Assembly: GCA_003427395.1 (NCBI GenBank)
Contig: BFEA01000031.1
Location: 1,338,221 to 1,402,220, forward strand
Source: Chara braunii
Taxonomy: Eukaryota; Plantae; Charophyceae
Reading direction: 5' to 3'
Length of the DNA stretch: 64,000 bases
Under the pieces are notes generated by a model, which did no database searches, was not told the origin of the DNA, and worked only from the letters and a program-made list of their open reading frames with translations. Made by a program: the position numbers and the translations under genes. Below are positions 20,107 through 59,795 of the stretch, piece after piece; the first letter of the stretch is position 1, and every line of letters starts with the position of its first letter.

Positions 20107-20658
20107 CTATCCGAGGCACATGACACGGTAGTTAACCATGGAGCAAAACTCCTCCCATAAGGTAGGCAGTCCGTCCATCGAAAAAACTCCTCGTCTGAGG
20201 TAAGGATACTCGGTGGGCTCAGTCAATGCCTCGACGTCGATCACCGCCGAAGAGATGTATCTCTTTGCCAAGCTAACCACATCCAGCCAACTCGTGCCAT
20301 AAGTGAGAAGAGAAGGGACCGGAGGCCTAGGATAGTCAGTATAAAGCGCCGGCCCGAAGCTGCGGATCAACGTAGTACTACTCTCATCGAGCTCCCTCTC
20401 TCTCTGCTCAAGATAGTTGGTGGTTGAGATCTAGACCGGATCGAAAAGTTCATGAGCCTCCTTGCCCTTCTTCAGATAAGGCCTCAGATCGTGAATAGTG
20501 TCATCAGCAAAACTGGTCTGGACAACGAAGATTGACAGATCTCCCTGTCTGAAACCAACGACACTAACATATCGATAATGAAATGCCTCTTTGCATGAGA
20601 TCCGATTGAGGTTGGCCAACACTGACTCACTGACCGGCGTAGGCTGAACTGTGCTCAT
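20107..20658 (-). pseudogene. LTR-embedded accessory ORF, family 1 (in-frame stops at 20431 and 20107)
   Basis: Close homolog of 3255-3893 (LNRISCKEAFHYRYVSVVGFRQGDLSIFVVQTSFAD; RSFGPALYTDYPRPPVPSLL). Confidence 0.75.
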
Positions 20659-20908
20659 AAGTACTCTTGCTAGTACAAACTTGACTAGATAGCCCCGGAG
20701 AACTGGTTACCAAAACTGATGGCAGAAAGCTGATTGTTGAGAACTGATTGTTGATTGAATGATTGTTGATGACGGATTACTGAAAAACTGTTTGCTGAAA
20801 ATCGAATGTTATAACTGTTGTTTTGAAGTCTACCCCAACTCTCTACAGGCTGCATGCGCTAAACACACACTCGTCTCTTTTTATCATGAAGTAGATGATT
20901 AACTTATC

Positions 20909-21150
20909 TCACTGAGAATCCCGGACAACCTTTCTTGCTTCCTCTACAGTGCCCACTAAGGAAATAGTAGCGCACAACTTGCCCTTTCTGTCATGTAAAT
21001 TATAGGTGTACTCAATCCAGGTGTGGTCCTTTACCAGCGTCAAAGCATGCTCCATCATTATGACTGTCTGCTGATTGTACTCTTCCACTGCACTATCCCT
21101 CCAATCCTCTGCCACGCTCTGACGCAGTGAACATGCCACCCTTATAACGC
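20909..21150 (-). pseudogene. Accessory ORF, family 2, interrupted by element C (5' part lies at 43329 to about 43365)
   Basis: Removing C rejoins RMKGGDV-IRVACSLRQ, matching REMGGEERRRVTCTMHQ of 4721-4996. Confidence 0.65.
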
Positions 21151-24100: not shown

Positions 24101-25221
24101 CTCCTCCCCTCTTCATTCCTTGTCGCTCTAGATTTCTTCATCGCCCTCCAATCGCAGGTCATCCCTCACTCTCGGCGGGATCCTCATCGCGCCCGCTCTT
24201 CTGAGGGCTGCCCAATGCCCTCACCTGGTCTGGCGAAGCCGCCGGCACTCGCCGATTCCTTCTCCCTTCGATTGTCCGGCTTGCCGCGCGTATCTGATGC
24301 GACTCTTGGTTTAGATGCATTCTGGCTTTAGCCAGCGGATTCGTAATCAGCCCGTTCATATTCCCTTCCGTCTGGAGCAGCGGTCTCGTTCCCCATGCTT
24401 TCAAGAGTCCGTTATCAAGAACTCGCGACGCTCTCATTCCCTCCCTCCCCACATAACTCACTTTCCCTTCTTGTACTGCCAATTGCGCGCGTAGCCTCCT
24501 CCAGCCGGACCCCGGATTCGCCTGGTGGGTCCCTCAGGCGGTAAAAGCTACTAGCTGGCTCTTCTCACCATTCTCCTGCCTCAGGGACGCACACCAGATC
24601 TCACAAGAATCAAATCCCCCCTTTTCCAACCACCCGTATACGGTCCACTCCTCGGCCCTTGCATGAGCTTTGGATCCGTTGGTGGCAGCCCTCGGTCACA
24701 GTCCCCTACCTCGCTTGGAGTGACTCCAGGCCGTCGACACCAAACCCCTTCGACTCTCTCCGTCTTACCGGCCCAAGCCCGCAAGGTTGTTTATCTCGGG
24801 ACTGTGCCAAGAGAGCCTGCTTGTTATCCCCCCTGTAGTTATTCCCCTGACCCTCCTCGTGCCGAAGTCCCTTCCGATCGCAATGCTTCAGGTGCTGCTG
24901 ATAGCCCATGCTCGGGCCCTCGATAGGTCCCTTATTTTCGGCCCTAACTCGACAGTCCGCCGTTCGTTCCCGTTTTCCTGGTCCTGGCATCGAAAAACTC
25001 CGATTTTCGTGATCCGCGCGAACCCGCTCGTGACCAAAATTTGGACCGCCACTTCAGCCAATAGAAGGGTAAGTGCGTAGACCCGGACACCCGAGGACAT
25101 CCACAAGTGCTACATTCACATGCACTCATATGTCAAAACCAAGCAAAACTGTAAAAACAAAGAAGAAAAAAGTTCTTTATTTCAAAGAAAAATACTTCGG
25201 CTGTTAGACAGCCGCCCGACA
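21151..25221 (-). repeat. 3' LTR of element C
   Basis: TG...CA termini; near-identical to 38986-43328; N gap 22214-23213; TATA-like GGGTATAAAAG on minus near 23435. Confidence 0.95.
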
Positions 25222-25240
25222 ACCAGCCCACACCCCAATT
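25222..25240 (-). promoter_or_regulatory. Polypurine-tract-like sequence, element C
   Basis: Minus strand aattGGGGTGTGGGCTGGT directly before the 3' LTR. Confidence 0.55.
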
Positions 25241-25535: not shown

Positions 25536-27269
25536 CTATGACTGTCTCTGTCTCCTTCTCCTCTTCTCGAGCCTCTCTCTCTTCCGTTTCCTCTCTCTTC
25601 TCTCTCGTTTGATTTTCAAGGCTCTCCTTGAGGCACTCCTCTCTCTCAATCTGCGCTTCCCTAACCGATCGGCGGCCTCTTCATCCTCTCTAGGTTTTTT
25701 CTTCTTCCCAGGGGTCTTTGGTAGGGAAGGTTTCCGAACCTTATACCCCTTCCTAGGTGGGCGAGACGAGGCCCCTTGTTTGGAGGTCTCCCCTTTTTCA
25801 TGCGTGATGGTCAACTCCGCGCCGAGCGCTTCTTTCCCTTTTCGTTTTGGCCCCTCCCCAAGGGTCCCTCTCGATCGGAAGATCTTGAGACGAACCCCTG
25901 CGATAGGGTCCCGCAGCCTACTCCCATCTAACTCCGCGAGCATATAGGCCCCCCCGTCCAATCTTTTTAGGACCTTGTATGGTCCCATCCATCGGCTTGC
26001 CAATTTTCGGCTCCAGGTCTTTTCTAGTGACGAATCGTACATCAGCACTAGGTCGTTCACCCCTATTGGAGCTCTTCGGACCCGTAGATTTTTGTCCCAT
26101 CTATCTTTCCCTTTCACCCTCTCCCTCTCGACGTTCTCACTGGCCGTGGCTACCCCGGCATCCAAGTTCTCGGCTATTTGCTATATTCGTGCTTCCAAAA
26201 ACTCACCCCTACACATGTTGGTCTTCCATGAGACACTTGTCCAAGTGTCAACGTGGAACTCAATGGATAGGGGACAATGCCTGCCGAACCAAAGGGTGTA
26301 AGGAGGGTATCCAATACTTGATCTGACCGTGATGTTGTCCGCCCAAACTGCGTACCGTAAATACTTGGGCCATTGTTCCGTGCGACCCCTACACCATTTC
26401 GCTAGGGCGTCCACAAGTGTTTGGTGTCCCCTCTCTACCAGCCCATTGCTTTCGGGGTGATAAGCGGTCGTGTAGGCTGCCCCGATCCCTGCTTTTTCTA
26501 ACAACCCCTTTACCTTTTGGTTCGAGAACTCATCTCCCCTATCCATGACTTTTCTCCCGACACACCCATACCGCGCGATATACTCTAGGAGAAAATCACT
26601 TACCTCCTCCGCCGTCTTTTTCTTAATGGCCTTGGCTTCTACGAATCTGGTGAGGTCATCCCGGGCGTTGATTATATATCGGAGACCGCCGACCCCTTTT
26701 GGCATGGTTACCAAGTTTATATGGACCTTCTCGCCCGGAACCGTGGGAAGCGACGAAACTAAGGGTTCTTTGTATCGAACCGTCACCCTCGTCTGGCAAG
26801 CTTCACAGGTAGAACAGTACTTTTCCACTTCGGTGTATTGCCCGTCCCACCAATATAGCCTACGGACCTTATCGAAAGTACCCTTCACCCCTCTATGACC
26901 CCCAACGACCCCGTCGTGCAACTCCTCTATGACCGCCCTCCTTTCCTCCGGATCGCACAGCACCCTCATGGGTATTGTGAATTTGGTGGGTCTCTTGAAG
27001 AGGTGGCCTCCCCGCAGGCAATACCCCAGCGCCTCTTGCTGGATCTTTTCAGTCCCTGTTTTCCTACCGGCCAGGTACAGTCCTATGTCTCGGTACTTTC
27101 CGTCGTAGAGATTCGCGAAAAAGGTCCTTGGGCCCCCTTCTTCCCCTCGGCTGCTCCCAGCTATTTGCGCCCTATTTGCGGCGACTTTCATTATCGCCTT
27201 TCCGGCCATTGCCTCTTCTTCCTCCTTAAGCCTAGGTAGGTCCTCCTCTCGAATGGGAAGACGGGACAA
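25536..27269 (-). pseudogene. pol: Integrase (HHCC zinc finger, DDE core, GPY/F motif, basic tail); stop at 26181
   Basis: ELHDGVVGGHRG...CSTCEAC; VHINLV (first catalytic D appears as N); VMDRGDEF; HPESNGLVER; RWMGPYKV; no chromodomain seen. Confidence 0.92.
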
Positions 27270-27296
27270 TCCATCGGCGACCTGTTTTTTTCTCCC

Positions 27297-28900
27297 CTAT
27301 ATCCTCTCGACCCTGTAGTCATAAAGCCTGATATGGATCCTCCAGCGTGCGATGGTTGGATCCGTCAATGAGAAATCCTTTTGGAGGACCGCGGCCACTG
27401 CCGTCGGGTCCACCCTTAGGAGAAAACGTCGTCCGTACAGGTAGTGACGGAAGGCTTTCAGGGAATGCAATACCCCCAACACCTCTTTCTTGAATTGACT
27501 ATAATTTCTCTCTGCGGGGTTCAAGGTACGACTCTCGAATCGCAAAGGCCTCTCTCTTCCTTCCCCATCCTTTTGTGACAGGAGACCCCCTACCGAGTAA
27601 GGTCCAGCGTCCGTGGATACTATAAACGGACGACTCTCTTCGTCTTCAAAAAACGGGACCCCTAGGACTTCTCCACCTTCGCGGAATTCCCCCTTCAAGG
27701 CTTCCATGGCCGTTGTTTGCTTTTCTCCCCAAACCCATCCTTCTGATTTCCTGAGGAGTCTTCTAAGGGGTTCCGCCTTCTCTCCATAGGCCTTTATGAA
27801 GATTCGCCAGCAACCCACAACCCCTAGAAATTGCCAGACCTCCGTTATGGATTTGAGCGGCGATGGCCAAGTCATCAACTTTACTAGCTTCTCGGGATCG
27901 GGCCTCCGCCCCTCTTTATCGCAAATGAACCCTAATATCTTGATGGAGGATATGCCCCAGCGACTCCTAGTCCCGCTTACTGTGAGGTTCGCATCGTCTA
28001 GTTTCTCAAGGACGTCTCTGACATCTTTCATATGGTCGGCCACAAACTTTCTAACCCCCGGGAAAACCTCTGTCTCATCCTGCTCGACCGGTCCTTTTAT
28101 CGGGAAATCATCCAGGAAGACCTCCACCTTCTCGGGTATGAATTCCTTGAGGACCGCGATCATGGCCCTTTGGAACACAGCTACCCCATTCGTCCAACCC
28201 ATCGGTACCACCATCATTTGAACTAGCCCTAAAGGTGTATGCATGGCGGTCATGTGCCTATCCCTGTAATCTAAGGGAATCTCGTCGTACCCTGAGAAGA
28301 GATCGCAAATAGAGTAAATCGAGCGACCAGCTGACCCTTCCGCTAGCAAGTCGGCCTCAGGTATAGATCCCACGTCTCTTATGGTGACTGCATTGGTTCT
28401 CTGGAGGTTCTGGATCCATCTTAGTTTGTTGCTACCTCCCTTCCTTAGAAAGAACCACTTATTGGAGTAGGCACTCTCGCAAGGTTCCGCGACGAATGTC
28501 CTGATATTTTCCTTGATGAAGGTCACTATCTCTTCTTTCTCCTTTTGAGCATACTACCATTGAGGTCTTTCCTTCCAAGGGACATGGGGGACCGTGTGGA
28601 TTCGGGTAGGATCAACATACCTCGGGTCGATTCTCCCTCTCTCCGAGTCGTCAAAGACAATGGCCTTATCGCAGCCCCTTAAGGTCATTGTTATGAACTT
28701 TTTTTCTTTCTCCGTGAGATTCTCATCTCCTATATCAATTTTGGCCAGTCTATCGGCCGTTATCCTTTGCCCCTCCGTCTCTTTCCTCTTCCTGATGATA
28801 TCGGCTATCTTCTCTTCCGATATCGTAACTTCCCCCGTTCTATCCCGGCTGACCGCGGCGGGTTTCACTTTCTCCGCCATGGTTTTGTGTTTCTTATCTC
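27297..28900 (-). pseudogene. pol: Reverse transcriptase plus RNase H; stops at 28554 and 27297
   Basis: SICDLFSGY, PMGWTN, VFLDDFPI, KILGF; RNase H IVSTDAG...RPLRFESRTL..AERNYS. Confidence 0.95.
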
Positions 28901-31900
28901 CGCCGGCTAGGGGGATCCCTCCAAAAAAAGACAAACTAACGCACCCACCGAACTCCTCTTCCTCGTCTTCCTTCTCGTACCCCATGCCGTTAATTACCAC
29001 CCTGTCCCCCACGTCTTCGATCTCCAATTGGTCCCCCTTGGGTCCTCTATCCGTCAAGGGCACTTCCTCTAGACAGACTCGACAAACCCTCGACTGGGCC
29101 CCCTTGCGCCTAGTAAGGCTGGTCCGGTTACGTTAATCTTGCGCGTCCACCGTCTTCAGGACCACTCCGATTCCATCAGGACTTTGGATCGAGAGAGTTT
29201 GACTTTCATCCGGCAAATCAACTGTGGTCGCATGTACCGCGCTTAGCCAAGTCTTCCCGAGGATTAATTCGGAGGAACATTCTTTCACCGTAAAGATCGG
29301 TACCGTGGCCTCCACACCAGCTACCTCAATTACGGGGCTATGACACACCCCTTCCGCCGGTTGCAGCTTGTTATCTACCATCACCATCGACATTGACACC
29401 TCTTGGTCTATCTCCAGGCCTAACTCTCGCGCGATGGAGTCCTTACATACCGTAGACTCGGACCCGTTGTCCACTAAAGCCCTCATCTTTTTCCCACTTA
29501 CCACCGCCTGGAGCTGGCCACTCCCCAGCACGTAGAGCTTCTTGGCCTCTTTCCTCGAGAAGAAATTGGCCGGCAGCTCCTCCATGGTAATGCGGGTGGC
29601 CCGCACTTCTTCCTTGGCGGGATCTTCTACTGGTACCATTGGTGCTACCGCTAGCGGGACCCTCACCTTCCTTGTGATGATTAGGAGCTCCTCTCTGACA
29701 CTTTTGCTTGCGGCCAGATACTCTAAAAGGGTGCACTGCATGGGCTGCATCAGCGTTTGCCTAAGGGGTGCTACCGTGTCTATCTCGTCCAGGGTGCACT
29801 TCATTTCGAACTTTTTGGGGCCCCTTTTCTTAGGTGATTTCGGCGAAGTGGGTTCCTCTTTCTTTTCCTCCCCTGCTTTCGCATCGGTCATTGGTTGGTC
29901 ATTATCTCCGCTTTTCACCTCCGTACTTTCCGTCACGCTTACTTGGTTCTCAAATGTCTCAGCCCCGACCTGCGGCCTCACCCTTAGGTAGGGTCTCTCC
30001 TCCTCGGCCTGTGTATCTATGAACTTGATGTTGGATACTTGGGGTTCCCTAATGGACAACCCTCCCGGTGACTCCATCATTTGGATGTGAGCCGCGCTCG
30101 AGGAGCCCCCGACCTCCGGCTTCTTTCCTAGCCTAGCCTCTTGAAGGGCCACCCTCTTATCCACGTTCACCCTCATCGATGGATAGAAGGAGACCGCCTC
30201 TCCGCTGTCTCCCCACACAACCCACTTGTTTTCATTCAACTTGACCACTCCCAATCTCAACGCCTCCGTGAGATAAGGGCAGTCCCTTTTGATGTGGTTT
30301 TCTTCGTTGCAGTAGACACACCCAGCCCGAGCTTGGGGATTGTTGGGACGCGGACCCCCTTGTGCCGTTGCTGCTATCGGCGCAGGCGCAGCCGGTAGCT
30401 GCGGTGCCAGAGGTGGTGGCGCTCTAAACTCCGGACGAGGCCCAGGGGCCCTGGCTTGAGGGGCGTCTCCCCACCTTCCATCCCTAGCATCCTTCCAATG
30501 GGAATTTCCCCAATCGGAACCACGATTCCCCCCTACTTCCTTGTCGTTCCTCCAACCTCCCTGGCCAATTGATTCGTTCCTCCATCCGGTAGGCCAGTCT
30601 CCCCACCGGGGGCCAGGCGGAGCCGGTGGTGGTCTATCGCTCCCCTTTGGACCATCGTTCCGCGTCCCTCGCATGTTGCGGAGAGCCATGTCCAAGGTCT
30701 CTTTCATGTATTCTCTTACGTCCACCCCCCCCCCTGTGAAAACCACTTCGGCTACTTTCTCGAAATTTGCAGAATCCCTCGGGGCCTTTTCAAGGACCTC
30801 CTTTCTCTTTTCCTCAGGCAGGTGTAGCATGAACATTATGCACCTGTCTACCTCGGACAACATGCCCCTATCCACTAGGGTTTGGGATAAGCGTTTGAAC
30901 CTTCGGGTGAAGGCTACCAAGCTTTCCCGCTCCCCCCTTGTAATCCGTCGCAAGCCCTCTACGGTTGGGATTAAGTCATCACAGGCAAAAGTCTGCAATA
31001 GGCTCGCCCTGAAGGTCCTCCATCGACCGTCCGAGGGGTAGATAGCCCGGATTGCGGTGTCTAATTCGGGGTCCGAGTGCTGGATAAAATAGTCGATCCA
31101 CTCCCTTTCGGAGAATCTCTTGCGGTACGCGTAACTTTCTCATTTCTCCACAAACCCAGTTACATCTCGCCCATCGAAAAAAAGCGCCTCTAGACCCAGG
31201 TTGACGTCATAATAGGGCACCCGTCGGTCGTCATATCGGCGAAAATAGAGACCTTCCATAGGTCCATCGGTTGCCGGATCGTACGGCCTATACCACGAGG
31301 GATCGGTCTCCTCTACCCGGCCTCGAGGTCTTGATGATTCCCAGGGGTCTTCCCCATAGCGACTCTGCTCATCTAGCCAATCTGCTTCCCACCGAGCGAG
31401 GTCCCTCTAAAACTCCTCCGGGGCTCCATCCCTTGACTCCTGCCTATTATCTCGCCAGTTGCCCAAGCCGCATCTGCCTCTCTCACGGCCCATCTACATG
31501 ACCTACTTCCAGCCTCCATTGGCCTCTTTTCCCTAAGACCCCTTCTACTTGGCCCCCCTTCCTCTTCTCTCTAGAGTGGCTTGTACCCCCCCCTATCTCT
31601 TGGGAGTTCCAGGGTTTCTCCCATTCTTGCGTCCGGCAAATCCCCCCATCGAGATTCTATAGGAAGGCCCCTCGAGCCCTCGGTTGCCCCCTCTCTTACT
31701 GACATTCTCATTTCCACACCAGATCTCGGGCCTACCAAGCCCTGCCTTTCACTGGTGACCCCCTCCGGGATCCTCTCGACCCATCTCCTCCCCTCTCTCA
31801 AGTCCCTCCTGTCTTGACACTCCTCTTCTTCTCCCCTAAGTGGCCGATACCCTTGTCTATCCCTAGGGAAATCCCTTGTCCCCTCTAGCCTTGCTTCCGC

Positions 31901-32215
31901 ATCAATTAGGTCCGCCCACCGGGACTCCACCGGAACGCCTCTCGTGGCTTCGGCTACCCCCTCGTTCACCATCACCCGCGGCCCCACATCCCTGTGCACT
32001 CTCACCTCCGCGTCAGCCCTTTGCCCCTCTGTGGCTTGTCTCTCTCCCAGAGCCATTTCTGGGACCCCTTCGGCCCTATCAAGCGTCTCCTTCCCCTCAG
32101 TCATTTCTTCCACTACCTTGCTTAGACTGGCCCCCAACTCAAGGCTCTTCACTATCCCCCTTCGTTCAGTGGTTTCCGGCAGACCAGGGAGACCAGCCCC
32201 CGCTTCACTCTCCAT
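28901..32215 (-). pseudogene. gag: gag-protease of element C (capsid-like region, CCHC zinc knuckle, aspartic protease) with several stops or frameshifts; true start uncertain
   Basis: LFFDGRDVTGF capsid motif near 31190; CVYCNEENHIKRDC; ALVDNGSE; ELILGKTWL; the TAA at 29133 is in frame with the downstream ORF. Confidence 0.88.
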
Positions 32216-32469
32216 GCACCCTTACCTGCTACTTCTAGTCGCCTCCCTCACTACCGTACGTGTCACTACCCCGCTCTCCCTCTTCACCACTGTCTCTGTT
32301 ACTTCCCGAGCGCTTCTCCTCCTCTGTTCCCCCCTCCTCCTCACTAGAACCCTCGTTCGCACCGTCTCTCTCCGACTCCTCACTGGTTACTGTCCGCCAA
32401 GCATCTCTCAGTTTCTTCTCCTCACTGGCGGCCAATGCAAGATTAGCGACCTCTAGGTCCGAGATGCCT

Positions 32470-33126
32470 CTAACCCCATTCTTGCGCACATCTCTTAATC
32501 AAATCCCTGTCCACATCACCAGGCTGCCCGGAGAATGGAGGCTTGATGAACTCCCCAACGCGTGCCCACCACTCGAAATCGGTGTCCTCTCTCGACTCCC
32601 AGCACTGGGTGAATAACTCGTGTCCCCCTCCCTCGCCCAGTGGGAATTTTTCTATCACTTGACTCCTCAATCGGACTCTCCTCGCGGTCTCGTCGTCCTT
32701 ATAGAGTAGTCGATAGGCCCAGGTAGGGATATTCCAAGTCCTTCCGTGGCCTGCTCTCAGAACCTCTTCCCTCCCTCGGTATTCTACCTTATTAAATACG
32801 GGTCCCCCGGTACCGACCCTTCTCAACCTCTATACTCGTTCTAGGGCTTTTTCGGCGATGCCTAGAGGGTCTTTCTCTTCCGCTAATTTAGTTGCGAAGA
32901 CCAGCTGGGCGTCAGGGGACAAAACGATTTCCGCTTTTCTAGTGCAGCCGTTCTCGTCGGAGGTCACTGAGAATCTGACCACCGTCTCCTGCTCGTAAAT
33001 CTCAAAGAACTCGGTAGTCACATCGCCTTCTCCTCTAACCCTAGGAAGAGTCACTCCATATTTCCCTGCCCACGTAAAAACCCTCTCTATGGTGTCGTAA
33101 GGGTCCCCCCTTTCGTATTTAATCAT
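32470..33126 (-). pseudogene. Element C accessory ORF (about 215 aa, one in-frame TAG at 32830), unknown
   Basis: ORFs 32830-33186 and 32470-32826 are contiguous in frame; ATG at 33126. Confidence 0.5.
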
Positions 33127-33134
33127 AGGGGTTC

Positions 33135-33804
33135 TCACCTCACACCTGCTAACCGCTCGGCGGCTTCGACCAAGGAGTCTTCGCACCTAGCTCGACCCGT
33201 CCCCCTATCCCCCCTTAGGGTTTGGCGCAAAGCCTCTTCATATTCGCTCGCCCTATCCCAAAACCGAGTCTCCACAAGGTGTGTCCTAGACGTCAGTGAC
33301 GTTCCTAGACATCTTGAGTCCTCCTCGAACTTTCTCTCTACTTCCAGCAAAGACTCTCTCCAAGTCCTCGAGAATCTCACGCCACTTGCGTCTCTAATAT
33401 GGACCGAAAAGATAGCTAGTGTGGTTCAGTTCCTTCTCTTCCACAAAGCCAGCCTCCGGACTTCCACTAGAAACTCCGTCTCGGCGCGGACTATCCGGTC
33501 CTCCCCCAATTCCGGGCTAAGCTCGGCACCCCCCTCGATCCTAACCTCGCTCCCGTCCTCGTAGGTCTCTAGTTCCCAGCGAATCCTGTTTGAAACGAAA
33601 GAGGCTCTCATCCCCTTACGCCAAGAGAAGGTCTATCGTGACCTCGTCGAGGATCGCGATCGTGGCTGCCTCTAGTAGCTTGATTCTTGCCAAGGACCCT
33701 GGCCTAGCCCTCCTTTCTTCTTCCCAGCACAGAGCAAGGATCCGCTGAACTTCGTCCCTCACTCTATTCAACCCCACGAGCCCCTCAAGGTCCGGCTCGG
33801 TCAT
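33135..33804 (-). pseudogene. Element C accessory ORF(s), fragmented
   Basis: Three short consecutive sense ORFs; the first ATG overlaps the end of 33785-34537. Confidence 0.4.
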
Positions 33805-34537
33805 CCCTTAATTTCCGTCGACGACAGGCTATAGCTACCCGAATCAAGTCAGAGGGGTCTAACCCTGCTAGCTCTCCCTCACAGATCTTGCCTAAATATC
33901 TCCACGATATCTTAGATTCTCTCGCGTGTTGACCCCACCCCTCAAAAGCGTAACCCAGGTCCTCTAGGGTCGACCAATCGTCCCTACAGGGGTCCCGAAA
34001 ACACCAAGTCAGCAAGGTGTGTAGGTCTGATCCCGTGAACCTGAACTGACATAGGATGGAAACCCTTCTTCCCACCGCCTTCTTAACAGCCTCGGAGGGG
34101 TAGACCTGCTCAAAAATGGGAACCTCCACATGCTTACAGGAGAGGAACCGCGGTATCTCTTCCCAACCCCCGTAGGTCACTAGATATTCCTCTTCGCACC
34201 CCTCGTGAGGTCCCAATCCCTTCACTAACTCCTCTAACTGGCCCCTTACGGCTTGAGCGTCCCAGAGAGGGTCCTGCCCAGTCCGTAGGCTACGCGCTAT
34301 CTCAACAAAGCCTTCCTCCGAGAGGAATATCCTGGCTTCTCCAACCACAACTTGTCCCTGGCGACTCACCACGAAGCGTACGAACGCCTTCCCTCGTCGG
34401 GTCCCCCCTTCCTCTCGTAGGAGAGTCCTCGCCGGTTCGGCCAGGCAGGCCCTAGGCAGAGTGAGTCTAATAACCTCCCCGGTATCCTTTACTGGTTCTA
34501 TGGACGCCCAAGGAGTCCTTGGAATCCTTCTTATCAT
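33785..34537 (-). CDS. Element C accessory ORF, family 3 (250 aa)
   Basis: EARIFLSEEGFVEIARSLRTG...EEIPR...VPIF matches the paralogs. Confidence 0.65.
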   Translation of the reverse strand: MIRRIPRTPWASIEPVKDTGEVIRLTLPRACLAEPARTLLREEGGTRRGKAFVRFVVSRQGQVVVGEARIFLSEEGFVEIARSLRTGQDPLWDAQAVRGQLEELVKGLGPHEGCEEEYLVTYGGWEEIPRFLSCKHVEVPIFEQVYPSEAVKKAVGRRVSILCQFRFTGSDLHTLLTWCFRDPCRDDWSTLEDLGYAFEGWGQHARESKISWRYLGKICEGELAGLDPSDLIRVAIACRRRKLRDDRAGP

Positions 34538-35277
34538 TGGCGCTTAAAACCCCTCCGGTTTGCCACCTGCTCCTCTTCGAAGAAGCGAGCCTACGGGACG
34601 TCCGCGACGAGGGTTCGGAGTCGCTCAAACTCCCTCAATCTCCCAAATATGGTGGATAGTTCACCCCTTGGGGGAACTCCCGCATCCACGCACCGAGTAT
34701 AAAGCCAAAACAAACCCCTATCCCGCACCCCGGATTCTCGAGCAGCCTTAAGCACCGCTACTATTTTCTCTTCCGGGTCCCTTAAGAACGAACTGGCCAC
34801 GAACTGGGGCAAGTTAGGGTGAAGGACCCCGAAAGCGCGAGGGACCTCTCCGGGCTCGGCGAAGGAAACTAGGGACCACAACTCGAAAGTCCCCTCCTCG
34901 TAATCTGTTAACACCAGGTTGTTTTCCAACAGCCTGGCGGACTCTCGGTACTCAAAGTGCGTAAGCCGCCCGGTCACCGAACCCCTCCAGACCTCGGTCC
35001 ACCTCTCCTCGTCGAAAAAAATGGTGGCTCGGATTTCTAGGAAGCGACCGATGTCGGGTGGGCCTCCTCTCTCCACACCCTCTTTCCGAGTGAGCCTTCG
35101 CGCTCGAACCCACACGTAGGCCCCTTCTCTGATTAATCCCCCTTTCTCAACACTCATCCAATAGGGAGTCACCTGAGGGTCTCCTGGGATCAAGACCTTC
35201 TCGGGATCACCGGCCTCTATCGATTCTACCACCCCTTCTTCACTGAGGACGAACTTCACCATCGGCTTTCGTTGCAC
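34534..35277 (-). pseudogene. Element C accessory ORF, family 3 (probable premature TAG at 34591)
   Basis: YVWVRA...IRATIFFDEERW...GEVPR...LPQF...LFWLYTRCVD; read-through ends in an ATGA overlap with the next ORF. Confidence 0.65.
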
Positions 35278-35926
35278 TAAAGACCCACTTGTGATAATCT
35301 TCCGGAGAGAGAGTGTAGGTCTTCTCTAAGGAACCCAGTCTATGGAAAATACCCCAGAGTCTCCTGCGCGGCAGAATACCTTGATCGATGTAGTGCGTAT
35401 AGAGTACCCACAGGGCCCAGACGGTAAGACCCAAACCCCTACCTCTCTCTAGAAGACGCACTATCTTTTCCTCGTTTGCCCTAGCGAACAGGTAAGACGG
35501 CACCCTCAGATTCAAGGGGTATCTTGACCTTGGAAGCTCTTCCTTCCTCGTGAACCTCTCCTTTTCCACGGGTACGAATGCAAATCGCTCTCTAACCCTG
35601 CCTATCCATTCACCTCTTACCTCTCTCGCTTCCCGCAACAGTCTTTCCAGCCCACCCCCTTGNCCCAGAANTAGGGGTACAACAAGTTTTGNNCAGGCTT
35701 TCGGNGCTACGTAAATAACCGNGGTCACTTCAAGGCTCCGTCCAACACCTCGGCCTTCTACTTCCTTGGACTCCACCCACACAAATTCCCCACTGACCGT
35801 GGACCGGCCCTCCTCTACTCTTTCCCAATCAGGGACTTCCCNGTTGCTAGGGATCANCCTAAGGGCCTCACTGTCCTCTAATGGGGACTCTAAGAAGCAC
35901 CCCTGCTTTTTATCTCGGAACACCAT
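35240..35926 (-). CDS. Element C accessory ORF, family 3 (228 aa)
   Basis: FVWVES...EVTXVIYV...EELPR...VPSY...LWVLYTHYID. Confidence 0.65.
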   Translation of the reverse strand: MVFRDKKQGCFLESPLEDSEALRXIPSNXEVPDWERVEEGRSTVSGEFVWVESKEVEGRGVGRSLEVTXVIYVXPKAXXKLVVPLXLXQGGGLERLLREAREVRGEWIGRVRERFAFVPVEKERFTRKEELPRSRYPLNLRVPSYLFARANEEKIVRLLERGRGLGLTVWALWVLYTHYIDQGILPRRRLWGIFHRLGSLEKTYTLSPEDYHKWVFSATKADGEVRPQ

Positions 35927-35930
35927 TCAT

Positions 35931-36497
35931 CTAAAAGACCCTCTGCGGCACCCCGAAGACCCTTTGATAACCGTGGTCTCTTCCTCCCTCGCGGTCCCGG
36001 GTGGACTCCCTAAGGATCCCGGCACGAATCCTACAAGCCTTGATCCCGTATGGCACCGGGTTATCTACGCAATAGGAGTAGTACCAATGGAGTGACCTAA
36101 CAGAGAGCTGCCAACCTCTTTCCCGCGCTATGGACCGCACTACCCTGTCGTATCGTTCCTCCTTCCCGCTCACCCTTCGAAAAACAAATGATGGGAATAT
36201 GGTCCTGACGCACCCTGTGGCACGAGGGTACTCCTCGTCCCGGGCGCAGGTCACCCTCACCTCGACGGGTGGGCAGTGTCTAAGGGGGTCAGCCTCAAAG
36301 ATCTGCCTCAAAATCGGTCCCGCCCGTGTTTCCCAATGATCCGCATGGTACCACCCCAGGACCAAATGAGTGACGTACTCGACCCAAGCTTCCTTACTCA
36401 AGTAGACTGTTCCTTCCGCACGGATCACTGTTCGCCTGGGTCTCTTCCAGTTCTGGGGCTGGTTTCGGGACCACCTGTCCCCCTCCCAAGTCCCCAC
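35931..36497 (-). CDS. Element C accessory ORF, family 3 (at least 188 aa; start uncertain)
   Basis: AEGTVYLSKEAW...LVLG...EEYPR...FPSF...LHWYYSYCVD. Confidence 0.6.
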   Translation of the reverse strand: MGTWEGDRWSRNQPQNWKRPRRTVIRAEGTVYLSKEAWVEYVTHLVLGWYHADHWETRAGPILRQIFEADPLRHCPPVEVRVTCARDEEYPRATGCVRTIFPSFVFRRVSGKEERYDRVVRSIARERGWQLSVRSLHWYYSYCVDNPVPYGIKACRIRAGILRESTRDREGGRDHGYQRVFGVPQRVF

Positions 36498-36666
36498 TGC
36501 GAAACGAGCCTAGAGAAACCCCCCCCTCTCTAGCTCTACCCCTCTCTCGCGACCGGCTAGATACCGCTCCGTGCGGTGGTCTAAAGGGACGCTGAAGCAC
36601 TCTCGGTCTTTGCTTAAGTCAGCTTTCTCAATCCGAACCCCTTCCTCTTCGGTACCCTCTAGGATT

Positions 36667-37083
36667 CTAACCATCCCCGAGGACTATCTCCTCTATGATT
36701 TGAACTAGCGCTCTCCACTCGTCCGACCCGTCCAGGAAGGCGTCCGGAATAGCGGGGGCTGGTCTACCCTCTCGCGGATACGTCCGGCACCCCAACGAGT
36801 AGAAATAGTTAATTTCGTAAGCCCCTAGCAGCTGCCTCTCAAGCTGCGCGTGACCGATCGCCTCTTCCCAGCTATCCAAATATCCCACCGCTCTATCTAC
36901 TCCCTCTTCCACGTACAAGGCTATGTCGAAGTGCCCGGTCCACCAGTAGAAGGTATAGCACCAAAAATCTACTCCGCCTATATCCCCCACACTGATCCCC
37001 GCGGGCTCAAATTCCAAAGGCCTCAAGCTCATGGATCCGCCGCTCTCATTATACGCTTTACTATCCCTACTAGTACTTTCCAT
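36667..37083 (-). CDS. Element C accessory ORF, family 1 (likely start MSLRP near 37032)
   Basis: Tandem paralog of 37029-37388; ATGA overlap with it. Confidence 0.7.
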   Translation of the reverse strand: MESTSRDSKAYNESGGSMSLRPLEFEPAGISVGDIGGVDFWCYTFYWWTGHFDIALYVEEGVDRAVGYLDSWEEAIGHAQLERQLLGAYEINYFYSLGCRTYPREGRPAPAIPDAFLDGSDEWRALVQIIEEIVLGDG

Positions 37084-37388
37084 CCATCCGACCCATCAAG
37101 ATAAGCGTCCGGAATTACCGGCGCCGGGCGACCACCTCTCAGGTAGGTACGATATCCTAGAGAGTAGAAATACTTGAATCCGTAACCCCTTAACTCCTCC
37201 CGCGAACAGCGGGAGTCACCTATCGCCTCTTCCCACCCCCGAAGGAAGTCCTCTCCTTGATCTTGCCCCTCTTCCACATAAACACCTACATCAAAGTCCC
37301 CAGTCCATAGTCTAAAGGAATAACACCACACGTCAACACTTCCATGGGTACACACACTAATCCATTCGGGAGTGGCTTCTAGGCTCAT
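37029..37388 (-). CDS. Element C accessory ORF, family 1 (119 aa)
   Basis: VDVWCYSF..WTGDFDVGVYVEEG...WEEAIG...FYSLGYRTY..GRPAPVIPDAYLDGSDGW. Confidence 0.7.
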   Translation of the reverse strand: MSLEATPEWISVCTHGSVDVWCYSFRLWTGDFDVGVYVEEGQDQGEDFLRGWEEAIGDSRCSREELRGYGFKYFYSLGYRTYLRGGRPAPVIPDAYLDGSDGWKVLVGIVKRIMRAADP

Positions 37389-38961
37389 ATAGTATAATCA
37401 AAAGGAAACTTCCCTAAGTTCTCTCTTCCTATTGGCCACTCGAGAGACCACCTCTACCCCGCGAGGAAGAGGAGCCTGTGAGCTCAGAAGGATCAAATGG
37501 ACCAGAGAAGGAATGCCGTCTCACTCGGCTACCTCCCTGTCCTCCCCCGCTGAGAGACTCCTCCCCACCCTCAGACTAGAGACTAGCCGCAGACACAGGT
37601 TATCCCCGAGGAAGGGTGGCAACCCCTTCCCCGGAGTCGGACCGAAGTCACACACCCGCACCCTACGTCCCCCACTGAACCGACCTCTAGTCCTAATTAG
37701 CCTATCCGGCACCACGCCTCTACTCGGCCCACCTCAAGCGTGGAATTACCCGGGTCCCAGGACAAGATCCACCTATGTATCGGGAATCGCTAGCCTATCT
37801 ACGCCCTCCCCATTCTCCTCATCGTGAACTCTTCGCACTTCGTTCCCTTCTCCCTTTTTCGCCTCCTGCTGCCTCTTTTCTCTCTTGGAATCACCGGAAG
37901 ATCGGGGAATGTAAAAAAAGGGTGGGAAGAGCGGAGCTTTTTAGGAAGATGCTCTCAGGTGGGGTCGATAAACATACGTACCTTGGGTCTTCAATACTCG
38001 TTATCGTAATCCCAATAATCCCCCAGTTCCGAGTCCGAGAAGTCGGCTAGACACCGGTCCACCCAGGAGTCGACCTCCGATCCCTCGCCCAAGGTCCCCC
38101 AAGTATCCCCCTCTTCTTGAATGCCCCCGCTATGAAGGTCAGGAATCTCCCTCTCTCCCCCTCGCTCTGGCACCCGTAGCACCACACTCCTCTCCCCTAA
38201 GCCCCGAACCGGTCCCGATTGAGAGTCTCGCTCCCTTGCGGGAGTTGCAACCGTCGTCAGCCCCGTGGATCGAGAATCGAAACCCCTAACCCCTCTCTAG
38301 ACACAATTTCTCTTGTGGTACTCCGCCCCTAGGTAGGTGCCTTCCACAACCCGTGCGGATCAATAACACTTGGCGACCCCCTCGGATCCCAAATAGACAG
38401 CGCTACCGGGCCCTCTCGGACCCCCCTCCCCGCTCCCTCTCTTTCTCTCTCCCTCTCTCCCCCTCGAGCAGACCCCCTTATACTATTTCCCCGGACTGTT
38501 CTTCCCCCTCTCCTTTCGTTGTTCTTCCCCCTCATTCAGACCCCTCAGGCAAACTGTGCACCCCCTTAGTTTTTCAAGTTTTTTGAAATAAACACGCGCA
38601 AAAACCAAACACACAAAAAGGAACTGACCTGTTTTTACCCTTCGACGGCCGCAAGTGGGCGCCGAGATCGCAAGCGAGCCGGAGCGGACCTGCAAAAAGA
38701 ACCAAGAAGACAAGCCCCGACACCCGGAAACCCCTCGCCCCCGACAGACCCCAACAACATGCCCCTCCCAATAAACCCTTTGCCGACGTTGCTTGAGAAG
38801 AGACTCGATCCCCGCGAAGAAACTGCTTGAAGACACGTGCCGAAGAACTTTGACGCCGAAATTTTGAAGAATGCTGCAAACTCACTTCACCGCTGCCTGT
38901 CACGCTGGTCCTCCCTCACCCCGTGATTGCTGAGCCGGACGCGGCCGCGGGAGAACTGCTC

Positions 38962-38980
38962 ATCCCCGGCAATGGCGCCA
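38962..38980 (-). promoter_or_regulatory. Primer-binding site (tRNA-Asp), element C
   Basis: TGGCGCCATTGCCGGGGAT, 5 nt after the 5' LTR. Confidence 0.9.
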
Positions 38981-38985: not shown

Positions 38986-41900
38986 TGTCCGGGTAGTCCC
39001 TCTCCCCCCACCTCTGTTTGTTAGGTCACCTGACCAGCCACCCCCTTCCGATCACCCCCCCTCCCCTCGGCGGGAGGCTCGGTTAGTCGCAAGCGCGGTC
39101 CCTCCCGGTAGCCGGCGCAGTACAGATTAACACCCCCTCTTTCCCACGGGTGGGCGACCCCTAGACACTCCTCCTTCCCCCACACTTTGACCGGACGCCC
39201 TCCCTTCTTTTTGGAATCTGGATCAGACCGCTCGAGGACGAGTCGATGGCTGCCACCACTGGCTCGCGACGCCAGGCCCACACGACCACCACTCGGCTCA
39301 GATCGGAGGCTCGAAATGGACCAAGCAAACGTGACCTGGTCCAGCCGACAAAGGACTCTTTAATAGAGCTAGACCTCGTAAAAGCGACGGGAAATGTCGG
39401 TACACCGCCTACAGGCGAACAAATCTGACGAACACCGGGGCAAAAAAAGAAAAAAAAACAGGCTTTCTTGAAACATACAGATCACACCAGATCAGCCAGC
39501 GGCCGGCTCGAGGCCAGATATTTTTTGACGGGCCGTTGAAAATAAAAATTTAGGAACAGCACTTAAATGGGAGCAGGGCGGGTAACCGCCTGGGCCGAAA
39601 ATGAGAAAGAAAAGAGGAAAGGAAAAGGAAAAAGAACAGGCTTTCTTGAAACATATAGATCACACTAGATCAGCCCGCGGCCGACTCGAGCCCAGACGTC
39701 TTTGACGGACTTTTTGCGAACAAGAAACTCTCGAAGAAACCCAGAAAACAGAAATTTTTGGAACTGCATCCAAACTGGGCGGGGTGTATAATCTCCGGGG
39801 GCCGAAAATAGCTTTCTTGGGAGATACAGCTATGCCATCAGCAAGAAACTCGGAGTCGGTAGTGTCTCCTGACCGTTTCTTGCAGTGAACAGAAGTCGCT
39901 TCCCTCCCCTCTGAAACGTCGCTCAGTACGTCGGGGGTTCGAAGCTCGTGCGCACTAGCTGCAGCAGCTCCCTCCCCTCGCGTCAGCCGCGTCGCACTGG
40001 CTTTCTCGGCTCGCCCCTTCCGACACAGGAGATTCTCTACTTCTTCCNNNNNNNNNNNNNNNNNNNNNNNNNNNNNNNNNNNNNNNNNNNNNNNNNNNNN
40101 NNNNNNNNNNNNNNNNNNNNNNNNNNNNNNNNNNNNNNNNNNNNNNNNNNNNNNNNNNNNNNNNNNNNNNNNNNNNNNNNNNNNNNNNNNNNNNNNNNNN
40201 NNNNNNNNNNNNNNNNNNNNNNNNNNNNNNNNNNNNNNNNNNNNNNNNNNNNNNNNNNNNNNNNNNNNNNNNNNNNNNNNNNNNNNNNNNNNNNNNNNNN
40301 NNNNNNNNNNNNNNNNNNNNNNNNNNNNNNNNNNNNNNNNNNNNNNNNNNNNNNNNNNNNNNNNNNNNNNNNNNNNNNNNNNNNNNNNNNNNNNNNNNNN
40401 NNNNNNNNNNNNNNNNNNNNNNNNNNNNNNNNNNNNNNNNNNNNNNNNNNNNNNNNNNNNNNNNNNNNNNNNNNNNNNNNNNNNNNNNNNNNNNNNNNNN
40501 NNNNNNNNNNNNNNNNNNNNNNNNNNNNNNNNNNNNNNNNNNNNNNNNNNNNNNNNNNNNNNNNNNNNNNNNNNNNNNNNNNNNNNNNNNNNNNNNNNNN
40601 NNNNNNNNNNNNNNNNNNNNNNNNNNNNNNNNNNNNNNNNNNNNNNNNNNNNNNNNNNNNNNNNNNNNNNNNNNNNNNNNNNNNNNNNNNNNNNNNNNNN
40701 NNNNNNNNNNNNNNNNNNNNNNNNNNNNNNNNNNNNNNNNNNNNNNNNNNNNNNNNNNNNNNNNNNNNNNNNNNNNNNNNNNNNNNNNNNNNNNNNNNNN
40801 NNNNNNNNNNNNNNNNNNNNNNNNNNNNNNNNNNNNNNNNNNNNNNNNNNNNNNNNNNNNNNNNNNNNNNNNNNNNNNNNNNNNNNNNNNNNNNNNNNNN
40901 NNNNNNNNNNNNNNNNNNNNNNNNNNNNNNNNNNNNNNNNNNNNNNNNNNNNNNNNNNNNNNNNNNNNNNNNNNNNNNNNNNNNNNNNNNNNNNNNNNNN
41001 NNNNNNNNNNNNNNNNNNNNNNNNNNNNNNNNNNNNNNNNNNNNNNNCCCGTCTACCCTTCCCCTCAAGCCTTCTTTATCCCTCTCTTCTCTCTCACGCG
41101 CACCAGTCTCTCCTCCTGGCGCAAGCACCATCGGCCGACGAGCTCGTGCAATGAGATATGTGCGCTCAGAACTCGTGCGTGCCAACCATGAGCTCCAACT
41201 CGCTCCTACGTGCACCGGGCTGTGCTCCTGGCGTAGGCACCCTCGACCGACGAGCTCGCGCGCTTAGACTCCTTCGTGTGTTCTGAATTCGTGCGCGCCA
41301 ACCCTGAGCTCCGATTCCCCTCTTGAACCTCTCTCCTTGCTTCCACACAGCCGCTCGCTCCGGAGCTTCCGCAGCACCCCGTTCGGTTCCGGGTCAGGAG
41401 AGCGAAGGCGAGAACTCTTCGGTATCGCCCTCTCTCTCTCCCGTGCGCCAGCGAATGTTATCCTCGAGCGCACACCGTGCGTACTCGCTAGCTTCCAACC
41501 TCCGTGCGCTTTTCTTTTTCAGGCTCCTCTCTCTCTCTTTTATACCCTCGGTCCCTCGTTACTTCCTCCTTCCGTATACGGCATTCGCATCTCATTCTGC
41601 TAACGTTTCCGCAATTTTCCCTTCTTCCTGCCGTTCGCCTTAAATTTTTCGAAATTTTTTCTTACTTCCCGCTCACCCTTCCTCCCCATCCGTTAGATCC
41701 AGCGTTTCCCCATCCTCGACCAATTACGGCTCACCTTTTCCTCAAGTTAGGATCGATATTGCTTTGTTCGGTCGATAACCTCCCGCCGGCAGCACTTGTC
41801 CCTTTCCAATCTTTGTTACTTGCTGCACAAGTCCGTTGAGCTCCCTTGTCCGTTCGTTTTCTTCCTCCGGGATCTGGCGGGAGCTCTGATAGACGGCGCA

Positions 41901-43328
41901 CCCCAGTACCAGCTCTGGTGCAGTTCGTTGCCCGACCGTTTGTACCCTTCGGCGCTGGTGATGTTTTCCGTACCTTCGAGAGCGTCGACTCTATTCCTCT
42001 TCTTCCCTCCCCCCCTCTCTCTGCCACATAGTTTCTTTCTCCCAACGTTTTCTACCATTTCCCACTTACTTTCGTCGATCCAGACTTCTTTTCCTCCTCC
42101 AATCGCAACTCGCCCCTCACCCTCGACAGGATCTTAATCACCCCCACTCTTCTTCGGCTGACAGTCGCGCCATCCTCGAAATTTTCCACTACTTCCCGCT
42201 CCTTCTCTTCTCCCCTTTTCATTCCTTGTCGCTCCAAACTTCTTCACCTCCCTCCAATCGCAGGTCATCCCTCACTCTCGGCGGGATCCTCATCCCCCCC
42301 GCTCTTCTCAGGGCTGCCCAATGCCCTCACCTGGTCTGGCGAAGCCGCTGGCACTCGCCGATTCCTTCTCCCTTCGACTGTCTGTCTTGCCGCGCGTATC
42401 TGATGCGACTCTTGGTTTAGATGCATCCTGGCTTTAGCCAGCGGATTCGTAATCAGCCCGTTCATATTCCCTTCCGTCTGGAGCAGCGGTCTCGTTCCCC
42501 ATGCTTTCAAGAGTCCGTTATCAAGAACTCGCGACGCTCTCATTCCCTCCCTCCCCACATAACTCACTTTCCCTTCTTGTACCGCCAATTGCGCGCGTAG
42601 CCTCCTCCAGCCGGACCCCGGATTCGCCTGGTGGGTCCCTCAGGCAGTAAAAGCTACTAGCTGGCTCTTCTCACCATTCTCCTGCCTCAGGGACGCACGC
42701 CAGATCTCACAAGAATCAAATCCCCCCTTTTCCAACCACCCGTATACGGTCCACTCCTCGGCCCTTGCATGAGCTTTGGATCCGTTGGTGGCGGCCCTCG
42801 GTCACAGTCCCCTACCTCGCTTGGAGTGACTCCAGGCCGCGGACACCAAACCCCTTCGACTCTATCCGTCTTACCGGCCCAAGCCCGCAAGGTTGTTTAT
42901 CTCGAGACTGTGCCAAGGGAGCCTGCTTGTTATCCCCCTCTGTAGTTATTCCCCTGACCCTCCTCGTGTCGAAGTCCCGTCCGATCACAATGCTTCAGGT
43001 GCTGCTGATAGCCCATGCTCGGGCCCTCTGTAGGTCGCTTATTTTCGGCCCTCACTCGACAGTCCGCCGTTCATTCCCGTTTTCTTGGTCTTGGCATCGA
43101 AAAACTCCGATTTTCATGATCCGCGCGAGCCCGCTCGTGACCAAAATTTGGACCGCCACTTCAGCCAATAGAAGGGTAAGTGCGAAGACCCGGACACCCG
43201 GGGACATCCACAAATGCTACATTCACATGCACTCATACGTCAAAACCAAGCAAAACTATAAAAACAAAGAAGAAAAAAGTTTTTTATTTCAAAGAAAAAC
43301 ACTTCGGCTGTTAGACAGCCGCCCGACA
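38986..43328 (-). repeat. 5' LTR of element C
   Basis: TG...CA termini; direct repeat of 21151-25221; N gap 40048-41047. Confidence 0.95.
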
Positions 43329-44254
43329 ACGTCACCGCCCTTCATTCTCTGCAGAGCTCTAATGCGTCAACTTCCATACCACAGGTCAGCACTCTGAGCC
43401 GAACAGGGTCCAATTGCAGATCTGACTGCAGGTCTAGTTACAGGTTTGTGACTGACAGATTATTGGTTTAGTTACAACTGAGAGTTGTCGCTGTGATTAC
43501 CATTCTGAAGTGCTGCTCTAATTGACGGTCCCTGGTTGCAGATTGCTAGTTGTTGATGGCTGATTGCTTTTCGTTTGCCACTTCTAAAGCGAAACTGCCT
43601 TCTGACTGTTGTTTCCTGTTGCTGTTACTGACTGTGGTTCTAGATTGCAGGCCCAAATAACTGACCGAAAGATTGCTGGCTAGGATTTTGTTGATTGTGC
43701 GACAGTTGATCAATTACCTGATTGAATAAAACTGAATACTGATTAAAATGTCGGTCTGAGCTCCGGTCTGAGTACTGATCCAACAAACTGATAAAATAAC
43801 CGATTGACTGTTTGATCAAGGTAATTCTGTTTTCTGAATGGTTGAATGGCGAAATAAAAGGCGGTTTTTTATGTTGTCTGAGATCTGCCAGCGTATAAAT
43901 CTTCACGCTATAATCTCTTAATGATTTGGGGCAACCACATTTTTGCTGACTGATGTTCAGGCATCTGGGGACTGTTATGGTACCGATAGGGTACTGGCCG
44001 ATCATTAGTCAAATACTAGTTGAGAGTTGATTGATCCGTTGGTTGATTGTTGCTATTATTACTGAACCCTGCACAACAGCGGCCTCATAGTGCATGGAAA
44101 CACAGTTGGCAGTGCCGAGTCCTTAGTAACGGTAAACGGTACTCAGCACCACCCTCTGTCAATTGCGGAGAGTATCAAACATTGTATATTGCTTACAACC
44201 CTGGTCTACTGAAGGGGTCCCCTGAGACAGAGATCAGAGCATTCTTATGTCCGC

Positions 44255-44590
44255 TTAAGTTCTTGCCTTGGCCTGCTCCAGGCTTTCCAATGACGAAACT
44301 GTACTATGCGGCTTCCCACTTGACTCGCAGATATAGAAAACGTACTCAATAAGCCTGTGATGACTCTCGGCTTTCTCCATAGCAAATTTTCTCAGAAACT
44401 TCTTGCTTTCTTCAGTCTCTCTCAACACCCTATCTTCCCAGCCCTCAGTTTTCGCCTGGTGTAAAGTACAGGTCACAACCAGTGTGTCCATGTTTCTGTA
44501 TCCCTCACCCTTATCCCATTTCTCACTTCCAGGTACGAAATTAGGGGGAACAAAAGTCTTTCTCCGGACCCTTAGGCGATCCTTTAGCAT
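44255..44590 (-). CDS. Accessory ORF, family 2 (111 aa), in the probable solo LTR
   Basis: VTCTLHQAKTEGWEDRV...IEYVFYI...KPHSTVSSLESLEQAK. Confidence 0.65.
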   Translation of the reverse strand: MLKDRLRVRRKTFVPPNFVPGSEKWDKGEGYRNMDTLVVTCTLHQAKTEGWEDRVLRETEESKKFLRKFAMEKAESHHRLIEYVFYICESSGKPHSTVSSLESLEQAKART

Positions 44591-58262: not shown

Positions 58263-58264
58263 GG

Positions 58265-59713: not shown

Positions 59714-59795
59714 AAAATTATTGAGAGATGGGAAATCGAGTGGTTACTAAGAAAAGAAAGGTTCTTTCTTTGACTGTTGTAACAGGAATACCAGG

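Follow-up and report, generated by a model that had tools for sequence, protein, structure and literature searches.

The window analysed here is a stretch of 64,000 nt from Chara braunii (contig BFEA01000031.1 of assembly GCA_003427395.1, positions 1,338,221 to 1,402,220, forward strand), to which all coordinates refer. A long terminal repeat (LTR) retrotransposon of 22,180 bp, with an internal region of 13.8 kb, occupied positions 43330-21151 on the minus strand, and nine head-to-tail, ATG-initiated sense open reading frames (ORFs) were found in it between its primer binding site (PBS) and gag (37388-32470, minus strand; Table 1). A sequence-only reading of the same DNA had described about eight such ORFs between the PBS and gag of a giant Gypsy element; the array and its setting in an element of 22.2 kb were confirmed, and the number of ORFs was corrected to nine. 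Stop-free runs of at least 100 codons made up 79% of the region; the opposite strand reached 34%, and in 200 Markov shuffles the same coverage averaged 11% and never exceeded 35%. Judged from the sequence data, the nine-gene accessory cassette is real and selected, and the signature of ribosome scanning that it carries is strong and controlled.

O1 and O2 overlapped by an ATGA at 37032-37029, and the remaining junctions consisted of overlaps of 8, 23 and 20 nt and gaps of 4, 4 and 8 nt, with the exception of O5-O6 (53 nt). A second ATGA overlap had been proposed at 34537-34534. This tetranucleotide exists and its TGA lies in the O5 frame, but O5 ended 54 nt sooner (34591); therefore, the window copy has no working O5/O6 overlap.

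Table 1. Features of the main element (minus strand), in the order of the sense strand.
Feature	Position	Strand	Description
5' LTR	38986..43330	-	TG...CA ends; 1000-N gap 40048-41047; lone TATAAA of sequenced part at 41544
Primer binding site	38963..38980	-	starts 5 nt past 5' LTR
Leader	37389..38962	-	AUG-poor, 1.57 kb; candidate mini-exon 38689-38629, predicted splice sites only
O1	37029..37388	-	family 1, 119 aa; out-of-frame ATG not depleted
O2	36667..37032	-	family 1, 121 aa; O3 start is the sole internal ATG
O3	35931..36674	-	family 3, 247 codons; one in-frame stop in window copy
O4	35240..35926	-	family 3, 228 aa, few N; Chara gene models P0064, P0077 with 69-74% identical stretches
O5	34591..35262	-	family 3, 223 aa; gene model P0070 89% identical
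O6	33785..34537	-	family 3, 250 aa; dN/dS 0.19 vs L001 over 145 codons
O7	33616..33804	-	singleton, 62 aa; open in L001, same start, dN/dS 0.25
O8	33135..33611	-	singleton, 158 codons, one in-frame stop in window copy; uninterrupted 158 aa in L001, dN/dS 0.12; P0077 81% identical
O9	32470..33126	-	family 3, 218 codons, one in-frame stop in window copy; none in L001, P0061, P0062, P0063 (75-88% identical); dN/dS 0.21 vs L001
O10	32235..32498	-	acidic Ser/Glu-rich frame; fused behind O9 in three other-copy gene models
gag-PR-RT-RH-INT	25536..32215	-	gag start near 32215; several stops; ATG density normal; Pfam matches and RT relatives
3' LTR	21151..25223	-	312 nt past pol end (25536)

The Pfam matches of the element followed the order gag, zinc knuckle, protease (PR), reverse transcriptase (RT), RNase H (RH) and finally integrase (INT), and the LTRs, the PBS and this order identified it as Ty3/gypsy. 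The LTR pair was 95.5-96.3% identical (Kimura two-parameter distance 0.040). Since several stops break the gag-pol frame, the window copy is dead, and the spacing from pol to the 3' LTR leaves no room for an env-like ORF. The 22 best of the 59 matches in an RT search were C. braunii gene models, the closest being 86-92% identical over part of the query, and the best non-Chara matches were at most 47% identical. Neither the spacer of PR and RT nor the RH-INT region nor the tail matched a second RNase H family, although a very degenerate domain might have been missed because pol is interrupted by stops; only about 115 residues separate RH from the integrase zinc domain. The element carried no chromodomain of the chromovirus type, only a weak Tf2-like SH3 match being found behind the integrase. 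Neither a 3' env-like or extra ORF nor a Pfam match to PF03078 (Athila ORF-1) was present, as would be expected of Athila, although the PBS presumably resembles the Athila-type tRNA-Asp PBS. The plant mobile domain (PMD, PF10536) gave no match in any extra ORF at E≤1, nor in the family-3 rows described below at E≤0.5.

Purifying selection on the array ORFs

The array ORFs are protein-coding, multi-copy and under purifying selection. In one scan of metagenome contigs, a single related locus (L001) was recovered from 378 pattern matches, and it was 88.6% identical to the window over 1538 nt spanning O6-O9. All four frames were open in this locus, with no internal stops against two in the window, and the three starts covered were all kept. 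When the 508 codons were pooled, dS was 0.36, dN was 0.062 and the ratio of nonsynonymous to synonymous divergence (dN/dS) was 0.17 (confidence interval 0.12-0.25; values per ORF in Table 1), whereas the shifted-frame controls gave 1.42 and 1.83. Hence, the stops of the window reflect the decay of one copy, and the array withstood the challenge foreseen when it was first noticed, namely that its ORFs might show random stops and a dN/dS near 1. Relative to the majority sequence, the window carried 33 differences in the array ORFs, distributed 14/10/9 by codon position (among the differences listed, 40 each of 1286 and 183), which fits decay after insertion.

Additionally, O1 and O2 were aligned gap-free over 347 nt, with 38/35/62 mismatches by codon position (p=4e-4); their dS was saturated and dN was 0.34. 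In three Chara gene models (P0061, P0062, and P0063) O9 was stop-free and ran on into O10, and a fourth gene model preserved the order O4, O8, O10 and gag. Copies differed in length by one base at the O9/O10 boundary (32478-32479), which fits the fused O9-O10 protein of other gene models. The DNA contigs of one sample covered the array and gag alike (6356/6450 records and 2536/2813 records), these records representing many copies but not a copy number.

Paralog families and neighbouring Gypsy elements

The array derives from tandem duplication of two families that are common to other Chara Gypsy lineages. Family 1 comprised O1 and O2 (56% identity, E 4e-42), and family 3 comprised O3, O4, O5, O6 and O9, with identities of 18-33% and shuffle z values of 7-19 for the linking pairs. 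The enlargement of an accessory array by tandem duplication, as supposed in the sequence-only reading, was thus supported by paralogs conserved under selection; its two family-1 members and its singletons (two) stood, and its four family-3 members became five. A comparison of the family-1 and family-3 profiles revealed no relation (probability 0.13%).

A full HMMER search with family 3 returned 24 proteins, 21 of them C. braunii gene models, several of which had been fused by annotation to gag, RT or integrase; four homologs carried two to four tandem family-3 domains. None of the 517 candidates from a word-index protein search with O5 scored. Among 7512 longer proteins, the family-1 profile matched one, a Chara gene model.

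The same families were found behind the PBS of two further Gypsy elements in the window. The second element (minus strand; LTR near 2752-3869, PBS at 2745) continues beyond the window edge and held at least four family-1-like ORFs (2414-523), with further ORFs at 520-1 and one TGATG junction, and was A/T-rich. The third (plus strand, about 58250-64000) showed a PBS-like site, a basic/acidic ORF of 139 aa (58483-58902) with a TAATG junction, and two family-3 ORFs (about 59070-60570) followed by gag-protease. Hence, in the parts visible, the left element carried only family 1 and the right element only family 3. The hidden Markov model (HMM) E-values behind these assignments were only 2e-4 to 2e-2; the post-PBS position and the links to Chara gene models agreed with them. 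A family-3 tree was built with 37 of 39 domains, the two under 120 aa being dropped. The family of the main element (11 rows) fell on one side of a branch supported at 94/92, which is below the starred threshold, and the other lineages fell on branches of their own, the branches being long. This topology is consistent with a separate expansion of family 3 in each Chara lineage.

Several other features were recorded around these elements. Five tandem copies of about 164 nt lay upstream of the PBS of the third element (56560-57380), probably inside its LTR. Both flanks of the main element (19524-21150 and 43331-44600) resembled one LTR of the family of the left-hand element, with 84% identity between 19524-20634 and 2752-3869, which suggests that the main element was inserted into the LTR of another element. 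The insertion is flanked by ACGT/GCGT, a possible 4-bp NCGN target duplication that, coming from one insertion, is only a lead; a duplication of this kind has been described for Phygy (PMC6317226). The 5' gag region (32100-31400) held an internal duplication of about 145 codons with 37% identity, and a consensus-like splice donor was present at 32226, 11 nt ahead of the presumed gag ATG.

AUG depletion and translation of the array

The array has lost AUG both in frame and out of frame, the purge reaching from the TATA box as far as gag. ATG was the most depleted of the 64 triplets both in the leader (observed/expected, o/e, 0.39; 5 vs 12.7 expected) and in the array (o/e 0.62), on the sense strand only, whereas gag-pol was normal (1.06). 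Internal in-frame Met codons amounted to 2 of 1635 in the array ORFs against 40 of 1863 in gag-pol (Fisher p=2e-9), and at one of these two sites essentially every other contig has a different reading. Furthermore, 12 out-of-frame ATGs were counted in O2-O9, when 31.7±4.8 were expected from synonymous recoding with the protein fixed (none of 500 simulations was as low); in the gag-pol control the count was 44 against 48.1 expected. Other copies showed the same, with Met at 3 of 1568 array residues and at 18 of 729 gag residues. Since Met is common in the family-3 domains of other Chara lineages (161 of 5089, about 3%), the protein tolerates this residue and it is the RNA that is under constraint.

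The depleted zone extended from the LTR TATAAA (41544) to gag, with the density dropping to a third. Ahead of the TATA box, 1.79 kb contained 26 ATGs; the 8.33 kb read from there on contained 45, and 5.6 kb of gag-pol contained 84, which corresponds to about 14.5, 5.4 and 15 per kb (1000 N not counted). Two of six non-start ATGs were common to the window and L001, both opening ORFs of 1-2 codons. These kept AUGs, which lie in O9 (33059 and 33023 in the window, 1175 and 1211 in L001) and open 2- and 1-codon ORFs, are possibly regulatory just upstream of gag.

Since the AUG signature is that of the pregenomic RNA of rice tungro bacilliform virus (RTBV) and the badnaviruses, and of green-algal bicistronic genes, leaky scanning on the LTR transcript is the mechanism to which it points. 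All nine ORFs and gag would probably be translated in this way from one LTR-driven RNA. The 40S subunits would scan from the cap across a leader and ORF bodies that are poor in AUG, some of them initiating at each of the mostly suboptimal starts. By a generic Kozak rule, assumed for Chara, the contexts of the nine starts were weak in four cases, moderate in four and strong in one (O3). O1 has retained its out-of-frame AUGs and would pass ribosomes on at the ATGA, through reinitiation of the short-ORF or stop-start kind, and the remaining 40S subunits would reach gag, so that Gag-Pol would be kept low too. The accessory products would be small soluble proteins that contact host factors and aid the persistence of the element. 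As a whole, selected accessory ORFs, leaky scanning and host-interacting proteins make up the explanation that we favour with reasonable, but not high, confidence.

The polycistronic nature claimed for the array was supported only by a signature in the sequence, the AUG depletion, which the sequence-only reading had not noted, and no transcript was seen. RNA run X6 provided 377 and 168 reads, mostly less than 95% alike, from both strands and with no joints, which are too few for expression, strand or splicing; runs X5 and X7 provided 0 and 3 reads, too few to judge.

Several observations weigh against this explanation. The start context of O3 is strong, and eight suboptimal starts out of nine are not far from chance. 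The out-of-frame ATGs of O1 were not depleted (8 vs 5.2 expected). About 45 AUGs remain ahead of gag in the decayed window copy, and the RNAs proven to use leaky scanning have far fewer, over about 900 nt in RTBV (PMC5902531). The arrays of both neighbouring elements were undepleted (ATG o/e 0.96 each); therefore, arrays of this kind do not generally require scanning. Part of both LTRs is hidden by a 1000-N gap, and the Met count drew on eight stretches from other copies, of which three were O9 copies and so not independent. Concerning selection, the copy-to-copy dN/dS comes from one contig of 1.5 kb and from O6-O9 only, and the selection measured was purifying, not positive, which does not single out an arms race.

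The first alternative, which we consider unlikely, is that the ORFs are expressed from nested subgenomic RNAs, arising by alternative splicing from a leader exon or from internal promoters, the AUG depletion serving only short-range scanning. A good acceptor (38689) and a donor (38629) do flank an ATG-free candidate mini-exon in the leader, and gene model P0061 joins it to O9; such junctions of gene models are, nevertheless, predictions, and no splice acceptor with at least 12/15 pyrimidines was found ahead of any ORF start. Splicing is described for Ogre and Bagy2, and an own promoter for the extra ORF of Grande (PMC4408406, PMC7264820), and the many AUGs of O1 would block pure scanning. Nevertheless, R-U5, the leader and the ORF bodies in their full length are depleted, and for monocistronic RNAs there would be no need of this.

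Concerning other properties of the leader, no Rfam match was obtained and only 2 of 10 folding windows reached a z below -2. At 37440-37760 and near 38040 the contig depth was two- to four-fold above that of the array, in overlap with the one clearly folded leader window (z -3.1); related or non-autonomous elements may have this segment too.

A second alternative, less probable still, is that coupled termination-reinitiation (stop-start) drives the polycistron, or a transactivator encoded in the array and comparable to TAV of cauliflower mosaic virus. Seven of the eight junctions lie within 23 nt and one is an ATGA, and the neighbouring elements show TGATG and TAATG junctions without AUG depletion, so that other lineages may use reinitiation. 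Nevertheless, reinitiation does not select against internal AUG, and the depletion is strong. No TAV-like domain was found in the Pfam search, and no TGGGA motif was present within 100 nt of any start, a weak point given that only about three were expected.

Possible functions and comparison with known systems

The proteins of the array matched no described element protein and no captured host gene, in agreement with the earlier view of them. Pfam gave no match at E<0.07 for 12 array queries and none at E<0.02 for 14 family-3 rows; the best E values in a PDB sequence search were 0.65 and 0.14, nothing significant; and host genes outside the retrotransposon-like Chara models were also negative. 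In the ESM Atlas nothing usable was obtained for O5, and O2 reached only 0.80-0.81, which is noise level. The structure model of O5 had a predicted local distance difference test (pLDDT) score of 48.6. That of P0076, a family-3 homolog modelled from a 14-row alignment, reached 55.1, with core residues 71-140 at about 65-85 forming a strand-strand-helix-helix-strand core followed by a helical part. With these models Foldseek returned no matches at E≤0.001 in PDB and BFVD; given their low confidence, missing fold matches do not mean a new fold. A likeness to chimallin (VIA Z 5.3, root-mean-square deviation 4.1, 96 aligned) was discounted because it was not reproduced with the other model, which gave a best Z of 5.4, to helical repeats. 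Known silencing suppressors and VANC-like proteins gave no sequence match, and the low-confidence models a best Z of 5.3-5.4.

The 14 aligned family-3 rows had no invariant column, and no transmembrane stretch was detected, the maximum 19-residue hydropathy being 1.61 (O7) and otherwise at most 1.26. Solubility and the lack of an invariant residue speak against an enzyme, and likewise against an envelope protein. That the paralogs diverge and that the content is specific to each lineage would suit binding modules engaged in a conflict with the host; tentatively, we read the paralogs as modules that bind without catalysis and are directed at silencing or defence in the host, with a separate partner for each copy. 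The anti-silencing role itself is a guess.

A helper role in the replication of the element (in the export of RNA, in packaging, or as a scaffold that is associated with particles and serves a very long RNA) is nearly as likely as binding modules in host conflict. It agrees with the purifying selection, with the near gag-level identity in one other copy (O4 69%, O8 81%, gag 69-87%), with the Arg-rich O3 and O4 (pI above 9) and an acidic tail, and with the precedent of CERV in Cer1 (PMC10309623). Nevertheless, one function hardly explains five paralogs at 18-33% identity, nor the swapping of families between lineages seen in the neighbouring elements. It is very improbable that the array is non-functional cargo, that is, captured host genes or a riding nested element. 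In favour of it are the stops in O3, O8, O9 and gag-pol of the window copy and the codon-position split of its listed differences, which resembles neutral decay. Nevertheless, this alternative is already contradicted by the copy-to-copy dN/dS, no host-gene homolog was found outside retrotransposon-like Chara gene models, and the same families precede gag in other lineages.

Descriptions of plant LTR retrotransposons list no more than one or two extra ORFs, and a selected nine-gene cassette blurs the boundary between a retrotransposon and a complex virus. Research on the conflict between transposons and their hosts gains two new protein families, from an alga closely related to land plants. The cassette is also a natural test of how far eukaryotic ribosomes scan, and the control is built in, since these genes occur in sister lineages of which some are depleted of AUG and others are not. 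If scanning were confirmed, this polycistron would be several times longer than the leaky-scanning ones described in the literature considered, and it would offer a pattern on which the expression of several genes from a single promoter could be designed in algae and plants. More speculatively, these charophyte Gypsy elements may be a complex virus-like lineage with interchangeable cassettes of the two families, an expandable counter-defence arsenal in which more than 8 kb of AUG-purged RNA would allow nine proteins and Gag-Pol to be made from one capped RNA polymerase II transcript.

In the literature searched, neither arrays of this kind in Chara nor an LTR retrotransposon with leaky scanning was found; this scope did not extend to repeat databases or supplements, and a prior mention is possible. 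A review of additional ORFs deals, in the part cited, with single ORFs, mostly 3' of pol (PMC7264820). The main survey counted only extra ORFs of at least 250 codons, and Chara is absent from its main text (PMC6317226); therefore, arrays of genes of 60-250 codons would be missed by it.

The Chara element resembles Ogre/Tat in its size above 20 kb, its LTRs of about 4 kb, its extra ORFs upstream of gag and its non-Met PBS (PMC6431247, PMC6317226, PMC4408406). Nevertheless, Ogre has one or two extra ORFs, often with a PMD (PMC6431247), whereas nine, including two paralog families, were found here, without a PMD, Transposase_28 or Athila ORF-1 match. The defining trait of Tat is an additional RNase H (PMC4408406, PMC6317226), which was not found in the pol of the Chara element; this is shared with Athila, from which the element differs in that no ORF separates pol from the 3' LTR. 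As lineage-specific accessory genes of transposons, VANC of VANDAL/MuDR, Burro/GYPSM1 and CERV of Cer1 are comparable (PMC13547354, PMC6431247, PMC10309623), and no homology of the array proteins to VANC, Burro or CERV was detected. Unlike the Chara cassette, VANC derives from MAIN/PMD in DNA transposons (PMC13547354), Burro packs recognisable domains into one polyprotein (PMC6431247), and CERV is one spliced gene (PMC10309623).

Concerning translation, the bicistronic genes of the green algae Chlamydomonas and Auxenochlorella show an ATG o/e of about 0.4-0.5 before the last ORF (10.1101/2024.07.24.605010). The Chara leader and array have comparable values, though under a different null model, and those are two-ORF host genes of chlorophytes, whereas the present case is a mobile element of a charophyte. 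In RTBV and the badnaviruses, ORFs I and II are AUG-free (PMC5902531). The Chara element differs from RTBV as a nuclear LTR retrotransposon with an integrase, without sequence relation to it, with nine ORFs over more than 8 kb against two over about 900 nt, and with a signature that is known here from sequence alone. Nevertheless, accessory ORFs upstream of the polyprotein, short overlaps and the removal of internal AUGs are common to both (PMC5902531), and by this analogy the RTBV/badnavirus pregenomic RNA is likely what the Chara array works like.

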